From NCBI GenBank assembly GCA_002793435.1, contig PFQF01000031.1:1-44690 (forward strand): a DNA stretch of 44,690 bases, read 5' to 3'. The notes beneath the pieces are model-generated. The model saw only the letters and a program-made list of their open reading frames with translations. It was not told the origin of the DNA and did not search any database. Of this stretch, positions 1,233-8,211 are shown piece after piece (within the stretch, counting starts at the first letter, position 1; each line of letters begins with the position of its first letter). The position numbers were made by a program, and so were the translations under genes. This DNA is from Candidatus Berkelbacteria bacterium CG_4_10_14_0_2_um_filter_35_9_33_12 (GTDB lineage Bacteria; Patescibacteriota; UBA1384; GWA2-35-9).

Positions 1233-1264
1233 TTTTTTCACAGAAAAAAATTTGTCTGATACTG

Positions 1265-1482
1265 GATAAACCCCGCCGGCGTCTGCGAACGCCTCTTGTG
1301 TCGTTACGCCAAAACATTGTAAGCAATGTGCATGCTATGATGTTTTGCTTGTTTGTAATGTTTTGCCGTAATGTAAACCGCTGTTCACTTCGCAGACGCT
1401 GTAATGATATTGATTGATTTTTTAATGTTTATTTGTCGTTCAAAAATTTCCCTCCCCACACCCCTTCCATTTTTTGAACGAC
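1265..1482 (+). repeat. left copy of the islet-flanking inverted repeat (218 bp, including a 94-nt hairpin insertion at 1293-1386)
   Basis: Segments 1265-1292 and 1387-1482 match the reverse complement of 3984-4115 almost base for base. It contains helix gcgtctgcgaa/ttcgcagacgc and helix gtcgttcaaaaa/tttttgaacgac, the latter with loop tttccctccccacaccccttccat. Confidence 0.9.
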
Positions 1483-1500
1483 ATTATTTGAGAATTGTAA

Positions 1501-1809
1501 TTAAGCAAAAACTCTATTTGAAATACGGACTTTAATATTTGGAGCATACATTTTTTGTCGGTTGTGCGATTTTTCTATAATATCGTACAACGGTTGAATA
1601 TTAGTTGGGATTTCGCTAATTGATATTTTATTTATTTTAGTTAGCACAAATAATTCGTCTAAAAACGAACGGGAGATAGAATCGATATTTTCCAGCGATA
1701 CAGCATTATATTTTTGCTCAACTATTTTTTTCACCACAAACCGCACGATTCCCCTTGTCGCACATATAATATCTAAGGTAAATAGTTTTAGTATTTTTGT
1801 TTCTTTCAT
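1501..1809 (-). CDS. DUF4325 / STAS-like domain protein (102 aa)
   Basis: Track ORF 1501-1908. I prefer the ATG at 1809 (MKETKIL...), which follows AGGAGAGAGGAAG. The central ...AVSLENIDSISRSFLDELF... resembles the signature I associate with DUF4325 (STAS fold). This is recalled from memory, not searched. Confidence 0.55.
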   Translation of the reverse strand: MKETKILKLFTLDIICATRGIVRFVVKKIVEQKYNAVSLENIDSISRSFLDELFVLTKINKISISEIPTNIQPLYDIIEKSHNRQKMYAPNIKVRISNRVFA

Positions 1810-1855
1810 ATTTACTTCCTCTCTCCTAAATATTAGTTTACTCCAATTATCATAT

Positions 1856-2422
1856 TTAATCAATATATTGCACATAATCAATCCCAACTTTCTTATACTT
1901 GCCGGCAATAGTTATACCGCTGTCTAGCATACAAACATCGAGATACTCTTTCGCCGGATAAAACTGTGCATTTATCCAGCCGAATTCTGCTTCGGAATGA
2001 TCTTCGATATTAGATATAATTTCATCGATTGCAAGATTTAGTGCACTGACAGAGCCCTCCGGAGAGCCAAGTTTTGATAAGCAAATTGCGATTAAACTTT
2101 CTAAAATAGTTGATTTATCACGCAAGGACTTATCATCTTTTTTAGATGCAGAGAATTTGTAAATTGGAATATATTTAGAAGACGGCAGTTTTGGTTTTGT
2201 TAGCCCACTGGGAAAATTAAAATAATTAAGATACGATTTGCAAACTTCGTCTTTCGGTTTAATATATTTTTTTGAACCTTCACTAATTAAAGCTGAGACC
2301 GGCAAGAGTTCTATCGGATGCATAAATTTTGCATCGCTCAAATCCACGATATCGACAGCGCTTTTTAGCAATTTTATTAAATTTTTAGTTGGTTGAAGAA
2401 TTGATTCCATAGCAGTTACCAT
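1856..2422 (-). CDS. GHKL (HATPase_c, SpoIIAB-like) ATPase-like protein, 188 aa, possibly C-terminally truncated
   Basis: N-box-like DEIISNIEDHSE and G1-box-like LDSGITI lie near the C terminus. The ORF stops 16 aa after G1 and no G2 box is visible. Its start ATG overlaps the stop of the upstream 55-aa ORF (TAATG). Confidence 0.5.
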   Translation of the reverse strand: MVTAMESILQPTKNLIKLLKSAVDIVDLSDAKFMHPIELLPVSALISEGSKKYIKPKDEVCKSYLNYFNFPSGLTKPKLPSSKYIPIYKFSASKKDDKSLRDKSTILESLIAICLSKLGSPEGSVSALNLAIDEIISNIEDHSEAEFGWINAQFYPAKEYLDVCMLDSGITIAGKYKKVGIDYVQYID

Positions 2423-2589
2423 TATTTATGAGTTGCTTCTTCGTCGATATCAGTTATGAAAACTATATTACTTTTATAAATTGGTTTTACAACTGGTGCA
2501 TAATCTGCCATTCTAACCTCGATTATGTTTGGATTATCAGCAACTTTAGATATATCTTTTAACGCTTCGATAAATTCTATTAATTCCAT
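2422..2589 (-). CDS. small hypothetical protein (55 aa), translationally coupled to its neighbours
   Basis: Not in the ORF track. ATG at 2589 lies 9 nt after the dpnI-like stop, with AAGGAAACA between them. Translation: MELIEFIEALKDISKVADNPNIIEVRMADYAPVVKPIYKSNIVFITDIDEEATHK. Its stop overlaps the next ATG. Confidence 0.45.
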   Translation of the reverse strand: MELIEFIEALKDISKVADNPNIIEVRMADYAPVVKPIYKSNIVFITDIDEEATHK

Positions 2590-2598
2590 TGTTTCCTT

Positions 2599-3369
2599 TC
2601 AAGATAACTTGTATTTTCCTTTTGATATAAAACCTACATATCCTTTATCTCGTAGAACTTGTAACTGTTGCCGAATTTTATCTCTAATATGGCGATTATT
2701 TGGGTATTTAATGCGTAATTCGCTTTCAAAAGCATAGACCTCATCAAGTGAAAAATCTTTTTTGCCAAGCTTATCAATACAAATCATAGTCTCTAATAAC
2801 CAACCTTTTGCTTCTGCTTCTTTCTCCTCTCGTAAGAAAAGTGTTTTTTTCCATTCGGCAAGTATTTTTTCTTTTGGTTCAACTTGCTTGTCCTTAACAA
2901 AGAATATTTTTCCTGTTCGTGGAACGCATTGGAGTAAAATATTGCAACCGACCCAACCTGTGCGTCTCGCTGTTTGAGACAATGCTTTACGCCTCTCTAT
3001 AATATCTGGAATAAAAAAGTGCTTAGGGATAACAAGAAAATTTAGAACAGAAAAGTTGTATGGATCGTAATTAAGCAGAAATAAATTTGGATTATTTGAG
3101 CTATGTAAACGTTCAATCATCGTCCGGTATGCCCCATCAACTATTTTTAAGCCAACGGAATCTCTCTTACTCTTTAATTCATAATCTTCGTGACAATTTG
3201 AACAAAAAAAATCTGCAACCGGTTTATTATTTCCGTATTTATCAATACCGAGACGACCGCAGTTTGGACAATAAATCTGCCTGTCAACCCAATCTTCCGT
3301 TAAAACTCTTATTTTTTGTGACGAACTTGTGTATTCGTTAGATAAACTGGTATCAAAAGATAAGTTCAT
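2599..3369 (-). CDS. DpnI-like (Dam-replacing family) methyl-directed type IIM restriction endonuclease, 256 aa
   Basis: From the MNLSFDTSL start it is colinear with pneumococcal DpnI as I remember it: SQKIRVLTEDWV, YCPNCG, PVADFFCSNCHEDYELKSK, DGAY..M, NNPNLFLL, ARRTGWVGCNI, and a C-terminal winged helix ending IRQQLQVLRDKG...GKYKL. Confidence 0.85.
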   Translation of the reverse strand: MNLSFDTSLSNEYTSSSQKIRVLTEDWVDRQIYCPNCGRLGIDKYGNNKPVADFFCSNCHEDYELKSKRDSVGLKIVDGAYRTMIERLHSSNNPNLFLLNYDPYNFSVLNFLVIPKHFFIPDIIERRKALSQTARRTGWVGCNILLQCVPRTGKIFFVKDKQVEPKEKILAEWKKTLFLREEKEAEAKGWLLETMICIDKLGKKDFSLDEVYAFESELRIKYPNNRHIRDKIRQQLQVLRDKGYVGFISKGKYKLS

Positions 3370-3385
3370 TATAAAGGTTATAATC

Positions 3386-3568
3386 TTACTTATCAACGCT
3401 AACTCTTTTGTCGGCATGAACCGTAAAACCTCCATTTGACAAGTTGTAGGGAGGATCCGCAAAAATCATATCAACCGAGTTTTCTTCTATTTCTTCGAGT
3501 AATTTAAAACTATCTCCCAAGTAAAGAGTAAAATTATTTCTTTCAAAATATGGTTTGTCTTTCATCAT
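3386..3568 (-). pseudogene. 5' stump (60 codons) of a beta-class N6-adenine DNA methyltransferase (DpnA / M.DpnIIB-like)
   Basis: ...SVDMIFADPPYNLSNGGFTVHADKRVSVDK* contains motif IV (DPPY) and the SNGG...VSVDK segment, then stops. Full-length enzymes are about 260-300 aa, with the TRD and FxGxG motif downstream. The dpnI-like start lies 17 nt beyond the stop. Confidence 0.8.
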
Positions 3569-3765
3569 CTCACTAGCTCATCAATCTTTATCTCTAACAC
3601 TTTGCAAAGAGAGATTACAGTTTCTATTTTAGGGTTTTTGTTAATCCCATTTTCAATCTTGGCAATAGTGTTTAAAGATACATCTGCTTGACGAGCTAAT
3701 CCCTCCATTGTTATTTGTTTTTGTTTTCTTAATTTTTTCAGATTAACCGCTATGTTATTTGACAT
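3565..3765 (-). CDS. XRE-family HTH regulator, R-M controller (C) protein-like, 66 aa
   Basis: Typical HTH_3 sequence (LKKLRKQKQITMEGLARQADVSLNTIAKIENG). Its stop overlaps the methyltransferase stump start (ATGA), the usual C-M arrangement. Confidence 0.75.
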   Translation of the reverse strand: MSNNIAVNLKKLRKQKQITMEGLARQADVSLNTIAKIENGINKNPKIETVISLCKVLEIKIDELVR

Positions 3766-3780
3766 ATATAGTGTATCAAT

Positions 3781-3796
3781 ATTATACTATAGTATA
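3781..3796 (-). promoter_or_regulatory. candidate C-box operator (14-bp perfect palindrome TATACTATAGTATA, 3783-3796) overlapping a TATAAT -10 (rc of 3781-3786)
   Basis: Palindrome read directly from the sequence. The -10 lies 15 nt upstream of the C-gene ATG and no SD is visible, consistent with a short or leaderless C transcript. Confidence 0.4.
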
Positions 3797-3885
3797 CATA
3801 CTAAAGTAATAATAAAAGTTATTTGTAGCTAAATAAATAGTATCCCATTAACAACCAAAGGTCAAACTTAAAGGGAGTATCAACC

Positions 3886-3921
3886 GTTGCCTGTGCACGA
3901 GTGGGTTGGGGCAAAGGCAAC
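3886..3921 (-). other. stem-loop (11-bp stem with one mismatch) with a C-rich loop on the minus strand (CCCAACCCACUCGU)
   Basis: gttgcctgtgc / gcaaaggcaac arms read directly from the sequence. It sits in a GC-rich patch of otherwise AT-rich spacer. Confidence 0.6.
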
Positions 3922-3983
3922 ACCGCTTTTATATTGGTATAGTTGTATTCTTTTCTTTAATTCCGTCCAACCTAATTCCGTTT

Positions 3984-4115
3984 GTCGTTCAAAAAATGGA
4001 AGGGGTGTGGGGAGGGAAATTTTTTGAACGACGAATAAACATTAAAAATCAATCAATAGTCGTTAGCGCATCTGCGAAGTAGGGAGAGCGTTCGCAGACG
4101 CCGGCGGGGTTTATC
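3984..4115 (-). repeat. right copy of the islet-flanking inverted repeat (132 bp), 5 nt downstream of tRNA-Tyr
   Basis: Its reverse complement matches 1265-1292 plus 1387-1482. Helix 1 carries one G-U change, and the loop is CGCUCUCCCUAC instead of the 94-nt insertion. Helix 2 and its CCCUCCCCACACCCCUUCC loop are identical. Confidence 0.9.
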
Positions 4116-4120
4116 AATTA

Positions 4121-4206
4121 TGGTGCTGGGTGAAGGATTCGAACCTCCGTAGGCATAAGCCAGCTGATTTACAGTCAGCCCTCGTTGACCACTTGAGTAA
4201 CCCAGC
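4121..4206 (-). tRNA. tRNA-Tyr (anticodon GTA), long variable arm, CCA end encoded
   Basis: Reverse complement: GCTGGGT acceptor, anticodon arm GCTGA-CTGTAAA-TCAGC, long variable arm, T arm GGAGG-TTCGAAT-CCTTC, ACCCAGC-A-CCA. 86 nt. Confidence 0.9.
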
Positions 4207-7233: not shown

Positions 7234-7440
7234 TTAAGTTCTTTTAGTTTTTTTTGTTTGGCTTTTATAGCACTTAGCACAAATGCCTTGATGTTTTTTT
7301 TTCATAAAATCAAGGCTGACTACAATGTTTGGGTGGAATTTTCTTTTGGTCTTTTTTTGTGAATGTGATACATTATGACCAGTAACAGTTTGCTTACCGC
7401 AAACCAAACAACTTCTGCTTTTTTGATAAGTTTTTATCAT
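7234..7440 (-). CDS. rpmB: 50S ribosomal protein L28
   Basis: CLVCGKQTVTGHNVSHSQKKTKRKFHPNI matches the conserved L28 core. Confidence 0.85.
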   Translation of the reverse strand: MIKTYQKSRSCLVCGKQTVTGHNVSHSQKKTKRKFHPNIVVSLDFMKKKHQGICAKCYKSQTKKTKRT

Positions 7441-7510
7441 TTGAACAATAAATTAATTCTTTAATCTCTAACGCTTTAGTATTTTACAATAATTATTAAC
7501 ACATATCAAG

Positions 7511-8131
7511 ATGCTACTATCACTTTTTCAAAATCCGACCGTTGCGCTCAGTTTTATTATTGCTCTTTTAATTGGTTTAACAATCCATGAAGCTTCTCAT
7601 GCTATTACAGCTAATAGGTTGGGCGACGATACGGCGAAATTAATGGGCAGAACTAGTTTAAATCCGCTCGTTCACCTTGATTTACTCGGCACACTTTTTC
7701 TTTTTATGGTTGGCTTTGGATGGGGCAAGCCGGTTTTAGTCAATCCAAATAAATTTAAATATCCAATCCGGGACGAAATTATAGTTTCGTTGGCTGGACC
7801 AATTTCAAATATTGTTATTGCTTTAATTTTTAGCTTGGTTTTACGCTTCTTTAATGAATATCTTTCTGTTCCGCTTAATCTATTATTATCAATTATTATC
7901 GTCATCAATCTTCGTTTAGCCATTTTCAACCTTCTCCCGCTTCCTCCGTTAGACGGTTCAAAAATTTTACAAATATTCATCCCCTACAATCGCTACTCTC
8001 AAATCCAGCCATACGGAACAATGTTGATTTTTTTAATCTTTATTTTCGGCGGGACGATTTTTTACTCTATAATTACTTTTCCGGCTGATTTTCTCTTTAA
8101 ACTTTTTGTCGGTGCTCCGTCACTCTTTTAA
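7511..8131 (+). CDS. site-2 protease family (M50) membrane metalloprotease
   Basis: HEASHA (HExxH) lies in a TM helix. The protein is multi-pass hydrophobic, with a downstream LPLPPLDGSK motif. Confidence 0.8.
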   Translation: MLLSLFQNPTVALSFIIALLIGLTIHEASHAITANRLGDDTAKLMGRTSLNPLVHLDLLGTLFLFMVGFGWGKPVLVNPNKFKYPIRDEIIVSLAGPISNIVIALIFSLVLRFFNEYLSVPLNLLLSIIIVINLRLAIFNLLPLPPLDGSKILQIFIPYNRYSQIQPYGTMLIFLIFIFGGTIFYSIITFPADFLFKLFVGAPSLF

Positions 8132-8211
8132 AATTTGAGTCATTTGAAAAATAAGGTAAAATATAGAGAGTAGTTACTGAACTGGTTATGTTTTAATAAT
8201 AAAAAATCAAA

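Follow-up and report, generated by a model that had tools for sequence, protein, structure and literature searches.

The islet described here lies in a 44,690-nucleotide contig of a Candidatus Berkelbacteria genome (PFQF01000031.1), the whole of which we refer to as the window. Six open reading frames (ORFs), all on the minus strand, run from position 3765 down to 1501, and code in order for a helix-turn-helix (HTH) protein, a methyltransferase fragment, a DpnI-type endonuclease, a 55-aa protein (p55), a truncated kinase-like protein of 188 aa (K), and a 102-aa protein (S). The islet (1484-3982, 2.5 kb) sits within a tRNA cluster, with tRNA-Thr and tRNA-Tyr at 4325-4121 on one side and tRNA-Thr, rpmG, and tRNA-Trp at 1202-840 on the other, and downstream of S the window offers no ORF, only an inverted repeat and tRNA genes (tRNA-Thr). 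Its features are given below by position in the window.

1501..1809, minus strand: S, a 102-aa VapS-like protein with a DUF4325/STAS-like domain and a conserved C-terminal tail, intact
1856..2422, minus strand: K, VapK/CapK-like, an N-terminal STAS-like domain and a GHKL serine-kinase domain, with an internal deletion of 84 codons
1874..1882, minus strand: junction of the deletion, a single remaining copy of a 9-nt repeat, ATTGATTAT (codons I181-D182-Y183)
2422..2589, minus strand: p55, 55 aa, directly after DpnI; no Pfam or NCBIfam match
2599..3372, minus strand: DpnI-type methyl-directed type IIM restriction endonuclease, 257 aa, apparently intact
3386..3568, minus strand: 60-aa N-terminal remnant of a beta-class N6/N4 DNA methyltransferase (DPPY motif); PADLOC MTase_II, E 2e-17
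3565..3765, minus strand: 66-aa HTH_3 protein (Xre/controller-like), head of the DpnI cassette; Pfam HTH_3, E 1.6e-14
1259..1483, no strand: left inverted copy of the spacer that follows tRNA-Tyr, the left boundary of the islet; inverted repeats I1, I2, I3, and I9
3983..4121, no strand: right inverted copy, the native spacer downstream of tRNA-Tyr (4121-4206), the right boundary of the islet

The genes from DpnI to S are closely spaced. The DpnI TGA (2601-2599) is followed by 9 nt (AAGGAAACA) and then by the ATG of the 55-aa ORF (2589..2422), whose TAA overlaps the ATG opening the 188-aa ORF (2422..1856) within a TAATG at 2424-2420; a gap of 46 nt carrying a purine-rich Shine-Dalgarno sequence, AGGAGAGAGGAAG, precedes the 102-aa ORF (1809..1501). 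These ORFs, spacings, and signals, together with the peptide motifs EIISNIEDHSE, DSGITI, and SISRSFLDELF, had been pointed out in a first-pass annotation, and all were verified in the sequence and its translations. The TAATG start is in doubt, because the K homologues begin at MES, corresponding to a second ATG (2410) located 11 nt past the p55 stop; this ATG is likely the true start of K, and the overlapping one is perhaps not used. The three small ORFs are genuine genes, as each has a low ratio of nonsynonymous to synonymous substitution rates (dN/dS) between the window and its relative L009 (0.06 for the 188-aa, 0.13 for the 102-aa, and 0.19 for the 55-aa ORF) and each belongs to a family found elsewhere (27, 71, and 13 proteins, respectively). 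A 135-aa ORF with a TTG extension (1908..1501) shares the last part of the 188-aa ORF in another frame and prompted the idea that K and S are one frameshifted gene; this is ruled out, as in homologues K (268-270 aa) and S (100-105 aa) are two genes 45-70 nt apart, and the lesion in the window K is an in-frame deletion.

Pfam places K among the HATPase families only below threshold, both for the window protein (HATPase_c_2, E 0.078) and for its close homologues; NCBIfam has no match for K, S, or p55, and PDB sequence searches with K and S profiles returned no match. The fold was tested on an AlphaFold2 (AF2) model of the full-length homologue P0002, which comes from L009 and is 91% identical to the window K. 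The model (predicted local distance difference test score, pLDDT, 85.6; predicted template modelling score, pTM, 0.88) has a β-α-β-α-β domain at the N-terminus and a Bergerat fold after it, and its top PDB match is SpoIIAB (1tid_C; E 5e-4, probability 1.0, template modelling (TM) score 0.73 normalised to the target), with the catalytic domains of the histidine kinases DesK and VraS (probability 0.99-1.0) and then Hsp90 and GyrB behind it. This supports the GHKL fold of SpoIIAB/RsbW type that had been proposed from motifs, and the N-terminal region of about 130 aa for which no domain had been named is identified as STAS-like.

The N-box residues E134 and N138 (EIISNIEDHS) are invariant in the 17-sequence alignment A1, and H142 is also kept in the window K; in the 47-sequence alignment A8, E130 and N134 (P0002 numbering) are invariant and align with the N-boxes of VapK and CapK, the characterised kinases discussed below. 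The G1 box residues D167 and G169 (LDSGITI) are likewise invariant and present in the window K. The G2 box, R200-G201-x-G203, is invariant in the homologues and has been removed from the window K, along with the ATP lid and half of the β-sheet.

The window K aligns with its relatives as far as '...KKVGIDY' and resumes at 'VQYID', with 84 residues gone between; all full-length relatives have these codons, so that the earlier caveat that the ATPase might be truncated was well founded. The missing segment is 252 nt long, in frame, and lies between 9-nt repeats (ATWGAWTAT). L009 keeps both repeat copies, 252 nt apart, as ATAGAATAT at 1253 and ATTGATTAT at 1505, and by BLAST both flanks in the window meet at the single ATTGATTAT at 1882-1874; the lesion is an in-frame microhomology deletion. 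When mapped on the P0002 model it takes out helix 181-189, the ATP lid with the RGSGL G2 box, helix 203-214, and the two long strands 218-231 and 237-255, leaving the N-box and G1 in place.

The deletion allele is real: an independent assembly (L011) has it with 100% identity over the junction, and it occurs on 19 contigs, including Berkelbacteria MAG (metagenome-assembled genome) records, and gives a 188-aa sequence identical to four NCBI accessions from Candidatus Berkelbacteria MAGs (PIP51262.1, PIS08377.1, PIX31096.1, and PIZ28379.1). It looks recent, because amino-acid changes in the retained part of K are not in excess in the window lineage, with 7 there and 5 in that of L009. As the ATP lid and G2 box are deleted, the window kinase is most likely inactive and the local K-S pair most likely either signal-blind, with S stuck in its unphosphorylated form, or decaying. 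Judged by the refuting condition that the first-pass annotation itself had named, a working module in the window is not supported: 84 of the ~170 residues of the catalytic domain, about half and including G2 and the lid, are missing from the local kinase. In L011 (12-797), which comes from another sample, an IS1595-family transposase replaces everything upstream of window position 2371, a further decay of the locus. We also note that three independent K lesions fall within about ten codons just after G1: that of the window (1874-1882); one in L010 (6001-6813), a Q-to-stop change in K with S intact; and one in L027 (368-985), a truncation into a convergent lysS that breaks off before the position of S and has 2.5x coverage, so that it is possibly chimeric. 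Their clustering may reflect a hotspot, selection, or coincidence.

S belongs to a family of proteins of ~100-124 aa that are always located downstream of K, and the copy in the window keeps every invariant residue of the family, including S46-R47-S48. DUF4325 is matched by 8 of 25 S-family members at E<0.01 (best 2e-4) with no competing family, and UniRef gives the name DUF4325 to P0270, a 124-aa annotation that is a near-identical cluster mate of the window S. The segment SISRSFLDEL aligns with MSRSFAHE in ORFC of prophage psiM100, MSRSFADE in gp42 of phage BF1-TP2, and ISSSFADE in a Nostoc fusion protein, and the motif SRSF(L/A)DE is one that S has in common with bona fide DUF4325 proteins scoring above threshold. 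An AF2 model of S (pLDDT 86.7) has a β-α-β-α-β-α domain, with S46-R47-S48 at the N-terminus of helix 2, and a disordered-to-extended conserved tail; its top fold matches in BFVD are phage proteins of ~100 aa, two of them named DUF4325. The assignment of S as a divergent DUF4325/STAS-like protein is thus upheld, although the Pfam match of the window S stays below threshold, as do the HATPase matches of the window K and its close homologues. The tail has the conserved motif SHxxQKMYAPxIKVxIS..FA, which suggests that S has a specific target, and no HTH match was found in the 102 aa of S.

The first-pass annotation knew of no characterised system of this composition, but there are two that match it. 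Chambers et al. (EMBO J 2026; PMC13373217, June 2026) describe CapK/CapS and VapK/VapS/VapC as kinase-substrate pairs activated by single-stranded DNA (ssDNA). CapK (HTH-STAS-GHKL), once activated by ssDNA, phosphorylates CapS (STAS-winged HTH) on S54, upon which phospho-CapS leaves the DNA and immune operons are de-repressed; VapK (STAS and GHKL) phosphorylates VapS (STAS and a short tail) at S48, which frees the PIN toxin VapC (PMC13373217). VapKSC of Escherichia sp. E4736 protects against phage Bas42, and the VapS-VapC structure is available as PDB 9Z7O (PMC13373217). The published census comprises 443 + 289 loci of the CapK/VapK family, and 88 of the 443 capKS loci lie immediately downstream of a restriction-modification (R-M) system (PMC13373217); the CapKS and VapKSC tables of that work contain no Berkelbacteria or Patescibacteria.

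We compared K and S with VapK, VapS, and a partial CapK sequence taken from the source files of PMC13373217. A8, a broad K profile that includes candidate phyla radiation (CPR) proteins, matches VapK over positions 27-288 of 302 with 59.1 bits (E 2e-20, one target) and CapK 1-253 with 26.5 bits over the STAS, N-box, and G1 region, and its N-terminal part also matches the STAS domain of VapS; a narrow, CPR-only K profile reaches an hhalign E of 0.0026 only. A conserved aromatic residue of the K family, W or F after 'DLS' and F33 in the window K, aligns with F54 of VapK, which is proposed to stack on ssDNA. VapS is itself a DUF4325 protein (Pfam E 2.7e-17), which accounts for an older report of a PIN clade coupled to DUF4325 genes, and ORFC of psiM100 finds VapS (9z7o_A) among PDB sequences at E 0.54 only. 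By these profile matches K is a member of the CapK/VapK family, characterised in 2026.

The closest likeness is to VapKSC. The K family shares with VapK the STAS-like and GHKL domains, the lack of an HTH, and a full length of about 270-300 aa, the window copy being truncated and predicted to be kinase-dead; S resembles VapS in architecture, with a length of ~100-116 aa, a DUF4325-like STAS domain with a short conserved C-terminal region, and an invariant serine, the putative acceptor, at the start of helix 2; and K precedes S in both. In contrast to VapKSC, there is no VapC/PIN gene after S in the window or in related CPR loci, S is divergent, and its tail is unrelated in sequence to that of VapS. 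With CapK-CapS the pair shares a GHKL kinase with a STAS domain and a STAS substrate, a much similar N-box (ELIGNVRDHSES in CapK, EIISNIEDHSEA in the window K), and a position downstream of a restriction gene, here DpnI, as capKS often follows an R-M system. However, K lacks the N-terminal HTH of CapK and starts directly with the STAS-like domain, S lacks the winged HTH and so cannot act as a repressor of the CapS type, and no immune operon follows the pair in the window, where only the inverted repeat and tRNA genes are found.

The family is large. A search of 1.84 billion representatives with the CPR kinase profile brought up 3255 clusters (50% identity) at E<=1e-3, mostly of 260-310 aa and matched over their full length. 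A genome scan with the alignment A5 gave 4 loci only, two from Candidatus Berkelbacteria and two from unclassified MAGs. A few members, such as P0153 and P0248 (~1270-1370 aa), carry the whole STAS and GHKL module as a C-terminal fusion to an SF2/RecQ-like helicase. PADLOC, run with the six local proteins and the full-length K homologues, gave no system-level match; the sole match in the K scan was to the N-terminal part of a long DrmA model, PDLC02567, which matches the kinase domain at model positions 116-245 (E 1e-7).

K and S form a stable pair in varied surroundings. They are adjacent, with K first and a gap of 45-70 nt, in each of the 12 contexts spanning the two genes (the window, L001, L004/L015, L005, L006/7, L008, L009, L010, L012, L013, L014, and the P0017 contig). 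Their flanks include an element resembling an integrative and conjugative element (ICE), with a type IV secretion system (T4SS) and bAvd; Replic_Relax and a serine recombinase with AAA_5/VWA genes; a variable island with HsdS, PIN, PDDEXK, and Y1 transposase genes; and plain housekeeping genes. No PIN/VapC gene adjoins S in the window or the related CPR loci, the only PIN_3 gene lying 4 kb from the pair in L001 and preceded by its own overlapping small ORF, and the CPR pairs come without a conserved third gene. In L010 a 270-aa ORF after K-S (7323-8135) was considered as a tandem K copy on account of its size, but the two sequences are unrelated; the next gene codes for a small, largely hydrophobic protein.

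Similar pairs are present in viruses and plasmids. In Bacteroides phage BF1-TP2, gp43 ('ATP-binding protein') and gp42 ('DUF4325') form a K and DUF4325 pair, and 'inserted fragment IFa' of the Methanothermobacter prophage psiM100 (L018 3122-5914) contains a K-like ORFB and ORFC (DUF4325, E 6.5e-7), by which the K-S pair is mobile in archaeal viruses too; IFa also holds a 492-aa ORFD with a faint resolvase-like N-terminus. The cargo beside paratox in a Streptococcus prophage includes a kinase of 298 aa and a DUF4325 protein of 99 aa (E 9.6e-11), and a Nostoc plasmid codes for a K-S fusion with matches to HATPase_c (28.2 bits) and DUF4325 (50.8 bits, E 1.4e-13).

These distributions bear on whether K and S are a classical anti-sigma and anti-anti-sigma pair of the SpoIIAB/SpoIIAA or RsbW/RsbV type, with the sigma factor encoded elsewhere. 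SpoIIAB is the best structural match of the kinase domain, the logic of serine phosphorylation on a STAS protein is the same, and one family member carries the JGI label 'anti-sigma regulatory factor (Ser/Thr protein kinase)'. Nonetheless we consider this reading very improbable: K carries an extra N-terminal STAS domain absent from anti-sigma factors, the family profile matches VapK over its full length, and the pair moves across domains among phages, plasmids, ICEs, and archaeal proviruses. In agreement with the first-pass annotation, which had remarked on the lack of a nearby sigma factor and on the placement of the islet within a tRNA cluster, no adjacent gene with a sigma-factor or PP2C-phosphatase Pfam match was found in the contexts examined, the rest of the genome not having been searched.

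It is also conceivable that K and S are a self-contained toxin-antitoxin or abortive-infection pair, in which K is a toxic effector acting on host targets, S is its pseudo-substrate or antitoxin, and the deletion reflects selection against a toxic gene. In its favor are the lack of a third conserved gene beside the CPR pairs, the ICE/T4SS, recombinase, plasmid, and prophage-cargo backgrounds, and the recurrence of K lesions with S intact (the window deletion and the stop codon in L010), with the third truncation, in L027, ending before the position of S. The lesions are few, however, and that of L027 is possibly an artefact of chimeric assembly. The kinase acts as sensor and VapC as toxin in the only relatives that have been characterised, with no kinase toxicity reported, and the conserved tail at the C-terminus of S speaks for a separate target of S, as in the case of VapS. 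We regard this reading as quite unlikely.

The 55-aa protein follows a different gene. Members of its family (50-61 aa) directly follow DpnI in 8 of 9 contexts (the window, L008, L009, L019/20, L021/22, L028, L030, and L031), and a metagenome scan for p55 found 4 loci only. Because p55 follows DpnI even where K-S is absent, in L021/22, L028, L030, and L031, gene order identifies it as a companion of DpnI and not as a part of the kinase pair.

The first-pass annotation had described p55, K, and S as welded to DpnI, and a single three-gene accessory module serving the nuclease, as a signalling or abortive-infection add-on, is favored by the tight spacing on one strand, by the order DpnI-p55-K-S retained in L008 and L009, and by the 20% of capKS loci that follow an R-M system. 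In L019/L020, from another CPR genome, DpnI-p55 is moreover convergent to a second, non-orthologous kinase-DUF4325 pair, consisting of a MerR-HTH and GHKL protein (242 aa), in which no STAS domain was detected, and a DUF4325 protein (99 aa, E 2e-6), on the minus strand at L019 5314-6364. But conservation of the neighbourhood holds for K with S and, separately, for DpnI with p55, and the trio accompanies DpnI only in the window and its two closest relatives, L008 and L009. K-S is found with neither DpnI nor p55 in at least 8 other contexts (L001, L004, L005, L006/7, L010, L012-14, and the P0017 contig), DpnI-p55 in turn occurs without K-S, and in the window K is disabled while DpnI is intact. 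An obligate trio is largely refuted, and we consider it improbable. The association itself does appear to recur, since the non-orthologous pair in L019/L020 also adjoins DpnI-p55, even though the trio is no unit.

We therefore favor a different reading, to which we assign a probability of roughly 0.7: the tRNA cluster holds two independent cassettes, a DpnI unit and a pair of the CapK/VapK-CapS/VapS type, and the local pair is a recently inactivated remnant. The first cassette would consist of the HTH regulator, the methyltransferase remnant, DpnI, and the conserved 55-aa companion, and act as a methyl-directed restriction unit; the second would consist of K, a STAS-like sensor joined to a SpoIIAB-type GHKL serine kinase, and S, a small DUF4325 STAS protein with a conserved tail.

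Several observations weigh against this interpretation or parts of it. The window S scores 17.9 bits against Pfam DUF4325 (PF14213), below the cutoff of 23 (E 0.0025), and a Foldseek search of its model against the PDB gave no significant match, the best STAS match being MlaB with a TM of 0.5. The S-family profile gives no significant direct match to VapS, and MAFFT places VapS S48 on R47, between the invariant S46 and S48, so that the acceptor serine is ambiguous. Both ssDNA sensing and the phosphorylation of S are extrapolated to the CPR subfamily from its relatives. The ORF of the window K is still open with no excess change on its branch, and the truncated protein may have a residual role, for example through a STAS domain that binds S or ssDNA.

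For the intact relatives, a mechanism can be proposed by homology with CapK and VapK. Single-stranded DNA arising from DNA damage, phage replication, or restriction would bind between the STAS and kinase domains of K and switch the kinase on; K would then phosphorylate S on one of the serines of its invariant SRS motif, and phospho-S would release a partner held through its STAS face and C-terminal tail. The partner is presumably not encoded beside the pair, where a PIN toxin gene is absent, and S lacks a DNA-binding domain with which to act as a repressor. What is new here is modest, namely a K-S pair that lacks both a DNA-binding domain and a PIN toxin and is common in CPR bacteria, prophages, and plasmids.

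Going beyond the two-cassette reading, such toxin-less and DNA-binding-less kinase-STAS pairs might constitute a large branch of the CapK/VapK family, spread over CPR bacteria, phages of Streptococcus and Bacteroides, and an archaeal provirus, in which the S tail controls a target elsewhere, with DpnI as a target or trigger. DpnI is hinted at because two non-orthologous kinase-DUF4325 pairs adjoin DpnI-p55, one in the window, L008, and L009, and the other in L019/L020. Cutting of methylated phage DNA by DpnI could, for example, yield ssDNA and switch the kinase on as a second layer of defence. This is a tentative proposal, which we think unlikely as it stands.

The DpnI cassette has its own probable history of loss. 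The nuclease matches Pfam PF06044 (E 2.2e-79, positions 1-182 of 183) and DpnI_C PF17726 (E 2.2e-31) over nearly their full length, and PADLOC mREase_II at E 3.5e-118. PADLOC control-protein models match the 66-aa HTH protein weakly, and the HTH gene is kept upstream of DpnI in L008 (86% nucleotide identity). The MTase_II match of the 60-aa remnant spans only positions 3-58 of the 260-position model, and the methyltransferase piece upstream of DpnI, 60 aa in the window, measures 97 aa in L021 (847-1140) and is absent in L008; the differing truncation points suggest a progressive loss of the methyltransferase, with a methyl-dependent nuclease in its place. In L008 (4994-5763), a 79%-identical relative, K is intact and DpnI is called as two ORFs (169 and 88 aa), which is either the opposite pattern of decay to that of the window or a sequencing error.

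In Streptococcus pneumoniae, work by Lacks et al. in 1986 reportedly had dpnC, the gene for DpnI, followed by dpnD, a small co-transcribed gene. The arrangement of p55, a small gene after DpnI, is reminiscent of that cassette, and a methyl-dependent enzyme occupying the site of a lost methyltransferase gene would fit the same logic of cassette exchange.

The islet is bounded by inverted copies, of ~140 nt, of the spacer downstream of tRNA-Tyr, with 42 nt perfectly matched (1442-1483 and 3983-4024) and an 87-nt insertion in the left copy. Each copy contains its own 14-bp hairpin (TGTCGTTCAAAAAA / TTTTTTGAACGACA). The two copies could mark the route by which the cassettes were inserted, or could be a means of inversion. 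A promoter and terminator scan gave 17 promoter-like sites against 12.5 expected and was uninformative.

The window thus provides a clean case of a defence-type sensor lost by microhomology deletion with the neighboring restriction gene intact. The CapK/VapK family is apparently far larger than published (3255 clusters at 50% identity, against 443 + 289 loci), includes many two-gene pairs without a recognisable output, and reaches into reduced CPR genomes, archaeal proviruses, and phage cargo regions. The 55-aa protein is better studied as a partner of DpnI than as part of the kinase pair, and the binding partner of the small STAS protein in these minimal pairs is a directly testable question.

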